The translations under genes were made by a program, and so were the position numbers. Of a stretch of 64,000 bases of DNA, positions 3,550-11,078 are shown piece after piece. Numbering within the stretch: the first letter of the stretch is position 1; every line of letters starts with the position of its first letter. This stretch comes from Escherichia coli 042 (GTDB lineage Bacteria; Pseudomonadota; Gammaproteobacteria; Enterobacterales; Enterobacteriaceae). The DNA is taken from the NCBI RefSeq assembly GCF_000027125.1, contig NC_017626.1; one strand, 5' to 3'. The notes below the pieces were generated by a model that saw nothing but the letters and a program-made list of their open reading frames with translations, made no database searches and was not told the origin of the DNA.

Positions 3550-7614
<4,065 letters not shown>

Positions 7615-7626
7615 ACTCCTTTCTGA

Positions 7627-7659
7627 TGCCCGGTAAGCATGTTGTTACCGGGCATTTTT
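7627..7659 (+). terminator. rho-independent terminator of glpABC
   Basis: 10-bp perfect stem TGCCCGGTAA / TTACCGGGCA followed by TTTTT, immediately after the glpC stop. Confidence 0.8.
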
Positions 7660-7806
7660 GCGTACACGATTCCGTGCCCAATGTATGCGTTGCAACGCAG
7701 TGAAAATTCCTCTGAAAACGTCTCGCAAAGGCTGAAACTGGCAGATGTCAAAGGCCTGGGATAACCGTAATGTCGCGTCATCATAAATATCAGGTGACGG
7801 ACAACC

Positions 7807-8766
7807 ATGACCGAATCAACAACCTCCTCCCCGCATGATGCGGTGTTTAAAACCTTTATGTTCACACCCGAAACCGCTCGGGATTTTCTGGAAATACATC
7901 TACCAGAGCCGCTGCGCAAGCTTTGCAACCTGCAAACTTTACGCCTGGAACCCACCAGCTTTATTGAAAAAAGTTTACGCGCTTACTACTCGGATGTTTT
8001 GTGGTCTGTGGAAACCAGCGACGGTGAAGGCTATATCTACTGCGTGATTGAACATCAAAGCTCTGCAGAAAAGAATATGGCTTTTCGGCTAATGCGCTAT
8101 GCCACTGCCGCCATGCAGCGTCACCTGGATAAAGGCTATGACAGAGTTCCGCTGGTGGTGCCATTGCTGTTTTATCATGGCGAAACCTCGCCCTACCCGT
8201 ACTCACTCAACTGGCTGGATGAGTTTGACGATCCGCAACTTGCCCGGCAGTTGTACACCGAAGCTTTTCCGTTGGTGGATATCACCATCGTACCTGACGA
8301 TGAGATCATGCAACATCGGCGTATAGCTCTGCTGGAACTGATTCAAAAGCATATTCGCGACCGCGATTTAATCGGTATGGTCGACAGGATCACCACGCTT
8401 TTGGTTAGAGGCTTCACTAATGACAGCCAGCTACAAACGCTGTTTAATTATCTGCTGCAATGCGGCGATACCTCCCGTTTCACCCGCTTTATTCAGGAGA
8501 TTGCCGAACGTTCACCACTACAAAAGGAGAGATTAATGACTATTGCTGAACGGCTGCGGCAGGAAGGACATCAAATTGGCTGGCAGGAAGGTAAAATTGA
8601 AGGTTGGCAGGAGGGGAAATTGGAGGGGTTGCAGAAAGGCAAAGTAGAAGGTATGCATGAACAAGCCATTAAAATTGCCTTGCGCATGCTGGAACAGGGC
8701 TTTGAACGTGAGATTGTGCTGGCGACAACCCAACTCACTGATGCTGATATTCCGAACGGTCATTAA
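7807..8766 (+). CDS. yfaD: Rpn-family recombination-promoting nuclease (PD-(D/E)XK, transposase_31-like)
   Basis: 319-aa ORF with the conserved N-terminal HDAVFK motif and a repetitive EGK-rich C-terminal module. Confidence 0.85.
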
Positions 8767-8980
8767 AAGGAGAGATTAATGACTATTGCTGAACGGCTAC
8801 GGCAGGAAGGACATCAAATTGGCTGGCAGGAGGGTAAATTAGAAGGTTTGCAGGAAGGCATGCATGAACAAGCCATTAAAATTGCTTTGCGCATGCTGGA
8901 ACAGGGCATTGATCGTGACCTGGTGCTCGCGGCCACCCAGCTAAGCGAAGCCGATCTGGCAGCGAATAACCACTAATTAA
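8522..8980 (+). repeat. tandem direct duplication (about 215-245 bp units) spanning the yfaD 3' end and ypaA
   Basis: Copy 1 (about 8522-8764) and copy 2 (about 8765-8980) both begin AAAAGGAGAGATTAATGACTATTGCTGAACGGCT. Copy 1 carries an extra internal [16 protein letters not shown] sub-repeat. Confidence 0.85.
8779..8976 (+). CDS. ypaA: small protein duplicating the Rpn C-terminal domain
   Basis: 65-aa ORF preceded by AAGGAG 7 nt upstream of the ATG; near-identical to the last 76 codons of yfaD. Confidence 0.7.
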   Translation: MTIAERLRQEGHQIGWQEGKLEGLQEGMHEQAIKIALRMLEQGIDRDLVLAATQLSEADLAANNH

Positions 8981-9016
8981 CACAGGCCCACAGCCGATCC
9001 CCATGGGCCTTTGATA

Positions 9017-9820
9017 TCAATAACTACCTTTTATGCGTGGCCCATTTTTGCCTGATTTAAACATCGCCAGTCGTTGATCCAGGGCATCGCTGTAGAGCAT
9101 CGTGTCAACGCCAACAGCGACAAAGTTCGCTCCCCACGCCAGGCATTGCTGCGCCATATCAGGAGCCACAGCCAGAAAACCAGCCGCTTTACCCGCAGCA
9201 CGGATCCGCCGAATGCTGGTTTCAATAATTCGCTGCACTTCCGGGTGCCCGGCGTTATCCGGGTAGCCCAACGAGGCAGAAAGATCCGCAGGTCCAATAA
9301 ACACGCCGTCAATCCCTTCGACGTCGAGGATTTCGTCCAGGTTATCCAGTGCTGTTTTACTTTCCACCTGCACCAACAGACAAAGCGAATCGTTGACTTG
9401 CGCCATGTAATTCTCAATGCGTCCCCAGCGCGCAGCCCGTGCCACACTGGCCCCGACACCACGCTCACCGTAGGGAGGATAGCGCGTGGCAGACACCACC
9501 TGACGTGCCTGATCGGCAGTATCGACCATCGGGATCAGTAGAGTTTGCGCGCCAATATCCAGGACTTGTTTAATCAGCGACTTACTGCCTTCCACCGGAC
9601 GGATCACGGGTTGGCTGGCATAGGGCGCTACCGCCTGTAGCTGGTGATAAAGATCCTGAATGGTGTTTGGCGCGTGCTCCCCGTCAATCAGCAACCAGTC
9701 ATAACCGGAGGTGGCGGCAATTTCTGCCATATAAGAAGTAGTCGAGCTTAACCACAGACCAATTTGCACTTCGCCCTTGCGTAAACGTTCTTTAAAGGGA
9801 TTGGTTAATAATGCGTTCAT
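9017..9820 (-). CDS. rhmA: 2-keto-3-deoxy-L-rhamnonate aldolase
   Basis: Start taken at [13 protein letters not shown] (267 aa); HpcH/HpaI aldolase family, recognised as RhmA/YfaU. Confidence 0.9.
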
Positions 9821-9836
9821 GGTGTTCCTTAACCTA

Positions 9837-11078
9837 TTAATGATGTGCCACGTCGGTCTGCGCAACAGTGCGATTTACACGCAGAGTGAAAATAATCAGC
9901 GAACCGATGACCGCCACCGCTGCCAGCGTCAGTAATCCCGCCGCATCGCTGGCAAACAACGTTTCTGCTTTCACGCGCAGGATCGGGGCAATAAACCCAC
10001 CCACTGCACCAAACAGGTTTACAAAACCAATCCCCGCCGCCAGCGCCGTACCGGAAAGCAGTTGTGTCGGCATCGTCCAGAACACCGGCTGCACGGCAAT
10101 AAACCCGATGGCTGCAACACACAGCGCTACGATCGCCAGTACTGGAGAAAGCAGCCCGGAGAGACCAATACCAATGCCTGCCGCCAGTAATGTCAGCGCC
10201 GCGACATTACGCCGTTCGCCGGTTTTATCGGAATAGCGCGGAATAAGCCAGGTCCCAAACAAGGCCGCGACCCACGGAATGGCGGTGACCACCGACGCCG
10301 TAAAGCCCACTTTTGTCCCCAACAATGCAGCAACCTGCGTCGGCAGGAAGAAAATTAATCCGTAAACCGCCACCTGAATGGTCAGGTAGATAATCGCCAG
10401 TTGCCAGACTCGCCCATTACGCAGCGCATCGCTCAGTCGAGAAGTCACTTTCTGTTGTTCTTCACTTGCCAGTTGGTTGATAAGCAACGTTTTTTCTTCT
10501 TTACTCAGAAAACGTGCCTGCTCCGGCGTGTCATCAAGCCAAAAGAATGTGAATACCCCAGCGCCGACTGCCAGCAATCCTTCAATCACAAACATCCAGA
10601 ACCAGCCGGGATGCCCCATAAATCCATGCATCTCCAGCAGCGCGCCGGAAAGCGGTGATCCCAGTGTTAACGCCAACGGTGCGCCCATATAGAACAGCCC
10701 CATAATGCTGGCGCGATTACGCTGCGGAAACCATTGCGAGGTGAGATAAATCATACCAGGGAAGAACCCGGCCTCCGCAGCACCAAGCAGAGTGCGAACG
10801 ATCAGAAATTTCGCTTCAGTATCGGCCCATGCCATGGCTGCCGAAAGAAATCCCCACAGCAGTGTTGTCGTACCAATCCAGGTTCTGGCCCCCAGTTTGC
10901 GCATCAAAAGATTCGCCGGAACACCCAGAAACGCATATACCACAAAGAAAATGCCTGCTCCCAGCGCATAAGCTTCATTACTCAGCCCGGTATCAATCTG
11001 GTAGGTTTGTTTGGCAAAACCGATATTCGAACGGTCGAGAAACGCCAGCACATACAGCGCCAACTTGACATCCTCCAC
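9837..11078 (-). CDS. rhmT: L-rhamnonate MFS transporter, N-terminally altered or truncated by the adjacent IS
   Basis: 413-aa ORF with an MFS fold recognised as RhmT/YfaV. Its only available start is a GTG at 11076-11078, inside the IS terminal hairpin; native RhmT is recalled as about 429 aa. Confidence 0.7.

Follow-up and report, generated by a model that had tools for sequence, protein, structure and literature searches.

Introduction

The Rpn modules illustrate well how one gene can lie inside another, with a toxin that carries its own antitoxin. Meydan et al. (2019) used Ribo-RET to map an in-frame internal start in each of the five rpn genes and described the internal product of rpnE as closely similar to the product of an independent gene, ypaA (bioRxiv 10.1101/520783). 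Zhong et al. (2023, PNAS) published ribosome-profiling tracks of the rpnE-ypaA region, detected SPA-tagged RpnE_S and YpaA in MG1655, renamed the latter RpnE_Ss and solved the structure of RpnA_S (PMC10400941). The same paper reports an internal transcription start, taken from dRNA-seq, in all rpn genes. In that work the small protein (RpnS) blocked the toxicity, SOS induction and nuclease activity of the long protein (RpnL) for RpnA, RpnB and RpnP2, and neutralisation of the long by the small protein was shown for RpnA, RpnB, RpnC and RpnP2, and not for RpnE. Hypervariable four-residue repeats, beginning 8-20 residues past the initiating methionine, vary in number between strains, those of the Ss proteins included, and one repeat added to RpnC_S or to RpnC_L led to loss of neutralisation unless both proteins carried it (PMC10400941). 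RpnE itself is the one paralogue found to be inactive on overexpression, with no toxicity, SOS induction or recombination detected, in experiments that left intact both the internal start in the RpnE construct and the chromosomal rpnE-ypaA of the host (Kingston et al. 2017, PMC5350276).

The locus described here is a further allele of rpnE-ypaA, which is a textbook case of a small partner duplicated as a separate gene. The arrangement of rpnE, its internal start and ypaA was already published in 2019 and again in 2023, and our finding therefore adds no new biology; the residual novelty is limited to the role of YpaA and to the mismatch in repeat number. The case also matters for annotation, since the NCBI pipeline names rpnE a transposase and often ypaA a truncated pseudogene, and both labels are misleading.

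Results

Layout of the rpnE-ypaA locus

In the window (the whole 64,000-nt stretch of DNA that was analysed), the rpnE-ypaA region lies between glpC, which ends at position 7614, and the convergent yfaU (9017-9865, minus strand). The features of the region are collected in Table 1. The two genes, rpnE (formerly yfaD) and then ypaA, are present in an allele other than that of K-12.

Table 1. Features of the rpnE-ypaA locus, in positions of the 64-kb window
Feature	Position	Strand	Basis
rpnE (yfaD), full-length ORF, RpnE_L, 319 aa	7807..8766 (including stop codon)	+	ORF list; NF007418; rpnE annotation in strain 118UI
PD-(D/E)XK / Transposase_31 (YhgA-like) nuclease domain, residues 8-209	7828..8433	+	Pfam PF04754; six RpnA-type residues
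Shine-Dalgarno AAGGAG of the internal start, codons K240-E241 of RpnE_L	8524..8529	+	sequence, pattern search
rpnE_S, in-frame internal ORF, 76 aa, starting at M244	8536..8766	+	sequence; MG1655 Ribo-RET and SPA tag (published)
Seven 12-nt units, hypervariable four-residue repeats, helix 1 of RpnE_L/S	8578..8661	+	codon reading, repeat searches
Copy 1 of the tandem duplication (RBS and rpnE_S)	8522..8764	+	direct-repeat search
Copy 2 of the tandem duplication (RBS and ypaA)	8765..8976	+	direct-repeat search
Shine-Dalgarno AAGGAG of ypaA, 1 nt past the rpnE stop (TAA 8764-8766)	8767..8772	+	pattern search
ypaA (rpnE_Ss), free-standing 65-aa RpnE_S paralogue	8779..8976	+	NF007418 positions 244-308; PF27070; 7TH0
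Four 12-nt units within ypaA	8821..8868	+	codon reading, repeat search
G+C-rich hairpin between ypaA and convergent yfaU, likely shared transcript end	8984..9010	not assigned	terminator-like scan, scored on minus

The long protein is an RpnE orthologue and the small proteins resemble RpnA_S

RpnE_L matched Pfam PF04754 over residues 8-209 (E = 6.2e-88, model positions 1-202 of 203) and scored 707.6 bits against the RpnE equivalog model NF007418, for which the cut-off is 583, whereas its score against the RpnA model NF007361 (416 bits) fell under the cut-off, indicating that the protein is an RpnE orthologue and not an RpnA. Over residues 1-256 RpnE_L and the RpnA model run colinear in numbering, and all six of the residues whose mutation changed RpnA activity (D11, D63, E82, Q84, R94 and D165 in RpnA numbering; PMC5350276) are present at the same positions. 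The first-pass annotation of this DNA, which had read the ORF under its older name as a Rpn-family PD-(D/E)XK nuclease, is borne out by these results. By analogy with the paralogues, RpnE_L would have putative nuclease activity, toxicity and capacity to induce the SOS response.

YpaA aligned to positions 244-308 of NF007418 (124 bits) and matched the RpnA_S crystal structure 7TH0 by sequence (E = 4.9e-4). The same structure was its top fold match (probability 0.97, 39% identity), in a comparison in which the single-sequence model had a pLDDT of only 70 and the Foldseek E-value was 0.27. Precomputed annotations place PF27070 (HTH_Rpn_C) on the C-terminus of RpnE and on this exact YpaA, and a Pfam-A scan of YpaA returned no significant family. 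When full-length RpnE was compared with PDB sequences nothing meaningful was found, and 7TH0 was retrieved by the small protein alone. Stronger-looking matches to designer pentatricopeptide proteins in the PDB search with the small protein arose by adding up many weak matches to repeated hairpins of helices and were not retained. A search of PADLOC-DB v2.0.0 (2023), with no Rpn model among the matches, gave no relevant match and only a weak one, in the C-terminal domain, to the putative invertase C3a178 (E = 7.6e-5).

The inactivity of overexpressed RpnE suggests a different reading, in which RpnE is domesticated or inert and RpnE_S and YpaA serve a purpose other than toxin control, such as DNA-binding regulation by small helix-turn-helix proteins. 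We consider this doubtful. None of the three in vivo assays showed activity of RpnE (PMC5350276), RpnS proteins show relatedness to helix-turn-helix motifs by HHpred (Zhong et al. 2023, PMC10400941), and the locus sits among metabolic genes, all of which would suit such a role. However, the catalytic and functionally important residues are all conserved, the whole protein is 92-100% identical across E. coli and related species, the inactivity may reflect the co-expressed antitoxin, and in the paralogues it is these same hypervariable repeats by which toxin-antitoxin pairing is tuned (PMC10400941).

rpnE contains an internal start that recurs in a tandem copy

The ATG at 8536-8538 is codon 244 of the 319-codon ORF, in frame and with 76 codons left. 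The first-pass annotation had correctly placed this in-frame start and its 76 codons, and had given the spacer between AAGGAG and ATG as seven nucleotides where it is six (AGATTA). The 64-kb window has four instances of AAGGAG-N6-ATG, where shuffled sequences give an expectation of 0.32. Mutation of the RpnA codon positions equivalent to K240-E241 abolished RpnA_S (PMC10400941), and the internal start in the MG1655 allele of rpnE is supported by Ribo-RET/Onc112 profiling and by the SPA tag (bioRxiv 10.1101/520783; PMC10400941). The initiation region in the window is identical to that of the MG1655 allele.

The start of ypaA lies 12 nt past the rpnE stop and is preceded by an identical AAAAGGAGAGATTAATGAC; upstream of the ypaA ORF the sequence reads AAAAGGAGAGATTA, the same as before the internal start, and 17 nt comprising the RBS and start are shared by both copies. 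A direct-repeat search aligned 8522-8615 with 8765-8858 (94% identical) and 8647-8748 with 8854-8955 (84% identical). These repeats confirm that the ribosome-binding site, start and coding sequence at the end of rpnE recur as ypaA with its ATG at 8779, as had been noticed in the first-pass annotation. The sequences 5' of 8522 and of 8765 diverge at these points and are unrelated, indicating that the duplicated unit is exactly the RBS and the small ORF (243 nt).

Within each copy lies a second, shorter repeat. Tandem Repeats Finder reported a 24-nt period, three times over, at 8581-8652, and codon reading resolved a unit of 12 nt coding for G-x-x-E, present seven times in the intragenic copy and four times in ypaA and starting at residue 15 of the small protein; these are the nested EGK-rich sub-repeats of the first-pass annotation. 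The lengths of 76 and 65 residues follow from the difference of three units and a tail indel of one codon. Between the rpnE_S and ypaA copies 14 codon differences were synonymous and 10 non-synonymous, with no non-synonymous difference in the first 55 aligned codons, and those in the last helix were conservative (E/D, I/L, T/S, T/A). This synonymous bias points to purifying selection and argues against ypaA being a decaying remnant.

The terminator-like scan found no hairpin between rpnE and ypaA, and the hairpin at 8984-9010 was the sole one of its kind. A simple consensus scan found no sigma-70-like promoter in 7600-9100, a null result that carries no information, given that dRNA-seq is the source of the published internal transcription start. 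No Rfam match was found at E <= 1 in 6000-11000.

rpnE is a fixed chromosomal locus of E. coli and ypaA is often absent

In a megablast of the locus against 5,426 complete E. coli genomes, rpnE was found in 5,420, always in the chromosome, at the same site and annotated rpnE. Strain 118UI has the same locus as the window (100% identity), and the locus of MG1655 aligns to it in four pieces at 96%. The junction between the tail of S and the start of Ss, which marks the presence of both copies, was detected in 3133 of the 5426 genomes; the others, about 42% and among them O157:H7 EDL933, have a single copy and lack ypaA. The internal RBS and in-frame start were kept in all sampled strains and species. 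The tandem arrangement was also found in E. fergusonii (7/4 units in S/Ss), in a cryptic Escherichia clade (2/6) and in E. marmotae (4/4), in the last of which the Ss tail is frameshifted. The duplication is therefore older than these species, which fits the 16% nucleotide divergence of the tails. A comparison with E. fergusonii defined no boundaries of a mobile unit, because homology continues into a yfaU remnant.

Some of the single-copy alleles join parts of both copies. Strains 130 and HCM-25C-3 carry a single copy in which a ypaA-type tail (…SEADLAANNH) is fused to the rpnE body, and in alleles L051 and L052 a seven-unit S array is joined to an Ss tail and the long ORF is broken. These recombinant single-copy alleles (L005, L006, L051 and L052) arose by deletion when the two copies recombined, and they demonstrate that exchanges between the copies do happen.

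The RefSeq product name, 'ISNCY family transposase', would make the locus an insertion sequence, and a 13-nt inverted repeat (92% identical) does flank the module at 7744-7756 and 9006-9018. However, chance alone would yield roughly one inverted repeat of this kind in a stretch of 1.4 kb, and the right arm of the present one runs into the terminator hairpin. Moreover, the locus occupies one chromosomal site in nearly every E. coli genome and in the other Escherichia species with no plasmid copies, and the fold is that of PD-(D/E)XK nucleases. With its sole inverted repeat at chance level and the locus chromosomally fixed, the transposon reading is scarcely credible and was rejected.

The distribution of ypaA bears on whether the gene functions at all. 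NCBI flags it 'incomplete; missing N-terminus', and taken at face value this flag would make ypaA a non-functional remnant of tandem duplication. Pseudogene flags are present in 118UI and many other genomes, the gene is missing from the genomes noted above, and its tail has decayed in E. marmotae. In all sampled E. coli genomes that carry it, however, the ORF is intact and the RBS and ATG are unchanged; the divergence of the copies is synonymous-biased, the gene is retained across Escherichia species, and YpaA was detected by SPA tag (PMC10400941). The pseudogene flag stems from the comparison of a short protein with a long family model, of which it covers the C-terminal end alone. We regard a remnant as very unlikely.

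Repeat number differs between the two copies

The number of 12-nt units varied between strains from 2 to 10 in S and from 2 to 8 in Ss, and YpaA-like proteins in the protein database ranged from 57 to 89 residues in steps of four; the first-pass annotation had proposed comparing repeat copy number across strains, and it does vary. In 13 complete E. coli genomes, from strains that are phylogenetically related, the S/Ss pairs comprised eight distinct combinations (7/4, 2/3, 10/6, 10/8, 3/4, 7/3, 7/2 and 8/6), none of which had equal counts. Left out of this count were the seven-unit 'Ss' of L051 and L052 (P0044 and P0040), which are the S part of single-copy fusions, and P0036, P0045 and P0031 (2/7, 4/7 and 8/7), which occur only in draft or metagenome contigs; L026, L029 and L031 are among those contigs and have Ns or frameshifts in the repeat region.

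These counts bring up the possibility that YpaA is not a redundant antitoxin: with its repeat number out of register with the resident RpnE_L/S, it could serve as a reserve cassette of specificity, changing the tail of RpnE_L by recombination with the intragenic copy, or as a modulator that pairs with RpnE_S and thereby titrates it. The counts differ in every sampled E. coli combination and in E. fergusonii and the cryptic clade, a single extra unit abolishes cross-neutralisation in RpnC (PMC10400941), and the recombinant alleles join an rpnE body or an S array to an Ss-type tail. However, the sample is small and the strains are related, and with some six count classes, 8-10 combinations that all lack a match fall short of significance. 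E. marmotae has equal counts, though with its Ss tail frameshifted, and equal arrays are more prone to deletion, which would explain the pattern without any function for the mismatch. We hold a non-redundant YpaA of this kind to be possible, if on balance improbable.

A rule that S and Ss never share a repeat number was considered and set aside: it holds in the sampled E. coli (the 13 complete genomes and protein-based look-ups) but is statistically not decisive, and E. marmotae breaks it. Overall, the unequal counts are a suggestive but not significant pattern with a neutral account, in which equal arrays recombine and delete more readily.

Discussion

The most probable interpretation, which we hold with good confidence, is that rpnE is a gene-within-a-gene module of the toxin-antitoxin type, in which the small protein holds the nuclease inactive, and that ypaA is its tandem duplicate. 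RpnE_L is of the PD-(D/E)XK nuclease type and ends in a three-helix domain. From the ATG at 8536 ribosomes most likely also make this C-terminal domain alone (RpnE_S, 76 aa), which, by analogy with RpnA, RpnB, RpnC and RpnP2, may pair with the identical domain of RpnE_L through the long first helix and so keep the nuclease off; such a pair could, again by analogy, serve in anti-phage defence. A 243-nt unit of RBS and small ORF was duplicated in tandem before the Escherichia species diverged, giving rise to ypaA, which has the same translation-initiation region and no duplicated promoter. Since sequence upstream of 8522, where an internal promoter would be expected, was not part of the duplication, and since no hairpin precedes ypaA, co-transcription is probable, and we infer that ypaA is most likely transcribed together with rpnE_S and translated just past the rpnE stop. 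The number of 12-nt units presumably changes by slippage or unequal recombination and would set the length of helix 1; in RpnC this number decides which small protein neutralises which long protein. Zhong et al. suggested that RpnL itself brings about repeat gain and loss and recombination of this kind. The anatomy of the locus, its family membership, its conservation and its variation between strains are shown here, and expression of both small proteins in the literature, whereas toxicity of RpnE_L, its neutralisation by RpnE_S and any role of YpaA are inferred.

Several observations count against this interpretation. RpnE was inactive on overexpression, albeit with the internal start and the chromosomal rpnE-ypaA in place. 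The neighbours of rpnE are metabolic (glpC and yfaU) and do not form a defence island, PADLOC gave no relevant match, the consensus scan gave no sigma-70 promoter, and ypaA is absent from 42% of complete genomes.

For YpaA itself, the four units that it carries against the seven of RpnE_L and RpnE_S, taken with the effect of a single unit in RpnC, indicate that it may not act on the resident RpnE_L. It could instead be kept out of register with RpnE_L and RpnE_S, either as a recombination donor that switches the nuclease tail or as a titrator of RpnE_S that would help release the toxin, and would then not be a back-up antitoxin. We put this forward as a speculative and rather unlikely proposal.

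The gene-within-a-gene interpretation is also that of the first-pass annotation, which had stated that toxic members of the family are reportedly neutralised by a small protein from an internal start and had proposed a toxin-like nuclease with an intragenic and an orphan copy of its small partner and with slippage-prone repeats. The former is published for RpnA, RpnB, RpnC and RpnP2 (PMC10400941), and the latter matches the published description of the locus (bioRxiv 10.1101/520783, PMC10400941). Translation from the internal start and of ypaA, the initiation of which it had suggested mapping, is likewise published for the MG1655 allele, the internal start by Ribo-RET and both small proteins by SPA tag (bioRxiv 10.1101/520783, PMC10400941). 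The interpretation is thus supported, with every element of it in print and most of the checks that it proposed already done in the literature.

Comparison with known systems

The closest relative of the locus is rpnE_L/rpnE_S/rpnE_Ss of MG1655, which has the same locus and position (glpC - rpnE - ypaA - yfaU) and, as in the window, an internal RBS and ATG, a downstream duplicate and a four-residue repeat region. The two alleles differ in the number of repeat units, which is seven (RpnE_L/S) and four (YpaA) in the window versus two and three in MG1655, in four substitutions in the N-terminal 243 residues, and in the penultimate residue, which is G in the window in place of C.

RpnA, RpnB, RpnC and the plasmid-encoded RpnP2 have in common with RpnE the PF04754 nuclease domain and the internal start at M244 with its RBS from K240/E241, and their three-helix small protein (7TH0) and repeat-tuned pairing are likened to those of RpnE. 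Toxicity, SOS induction, neutralisation and phage defence are features of these four paralogues, whereas RpnE was inactive on overexpression (PMC5350276). A downstream free-standing copy of the small gene is found only for rpnC, in some strains, and for rpnE. In other bacteria, genes for DUF4351 (PF14261) or HTH_Rpn_C (PF27070) proteins stand beside rpn, so that the small antitoxin-like domain has a gene of its own, like ypaA; but whereas the free-standing genes of other bacteria take the place of an intragenic copy, rpnE has its free-standing copy in addition to the intragenic one.

Results

In many complete genomes, ypaA, the free-standing tandem copy of rpnE_S, is labelled a pseudogene by NCBI's pipeline ('incomplete; partial in the middle of a contig; missing N-terminus'), with the annotated feature beginning directly after the stop codon of rpnE, the product of which is named 'ISNCY family transposase' by the same pipeline. 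Despite the pseudogene flag, the ypaA reading frame is unbroken and is preceded by its own ribosome-binding site (RBS) and ATG; the flag is raised because the protein is short and aligns solely to the C-terminal part of the model for the RpnE family. In E. marmotae, the ypaA protein begins MAIAE… and has four repeat units, the same number as rpnE_S of that species, but a frameshift in its tail (…IDRDLAARSHPAKRSRSGSE) eliminates the third helix; this orphan copy seems to be undergoing decay.

Natural knock-outs of the long RpnE protein were observed in strain UTME-10 and in a divergent Escherichia lineage. In the latter, the small ORF and its RBS are unbroken despite the frameshift in the long ORF, thereby leaving an orphan small protein.

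Features of the rpnE-ypaA locus in the window and in compared loci (L numbers)
Feature	Position	Details
Inverted repeat, 13 nt, 92%	window 7744-7756 / 9006-9018	arms GATGTCAAAGGCC / GGCCTTTGATATC
ypaA pseudogene feature	window 8765-8976; L001 2568-2777	NCBI pipeline annotation
ypaA pseudogene feature, further loci	L003, L004, L007, L009-L013, L015, L016	NCBI pipeline annotation
rpnE truncated by IS2	L008 1307-1939	strain UTME-10; insertion after about 211 codons
rpnE long ORF with frameshift	L041 473-1386	divergent Escherichia lineage (Logan SRR13494856); ends at 242 aa
E. marmotae ypaA copy	L048/L050 1301-1492	protein P0112

The entire rpnE-ypaA unit is flanked by an inverted repeat, which is probably meaningless since a 1.4-kb stretch should contain about one pair of this kind by chance alone and its right arm overlaps the terminator hairpin.

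Short-read and metagenome assemblies of the repeat-rich locus frequently contain N runs, frameshifts or implausible combinations, and repeat counts from such draft genomes (L026, L029 and L031) and metagenome contigs (L027, L028 and L036-L040) are not trustworthy. Separately, a 76-aa E. coli YpaA variant (P0002), from a 5.1 Mb contig, has an 11-residue stretch of helix 2 present twice, in place of additional G-x-x-E units, indicating that length variation in YpaA is not confined to the four-residue repeat array.

In the repeat arrays of both rpnE_S and ypaA (window 8578-8661 and 8821-8868), glycine occupies each fourth position (G-x-x-E). The repeat weakly matched models of the FliH N-terminus (E = 1e-7 to 4e-4) as well as Pfam Yae1_N (E = 0.22). 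These regions of FliH and Yae1 consist of G-x-x-x-G repeats, with an implied role in the pairing of helices; the likeness is compositional and does not indicate homology to either.
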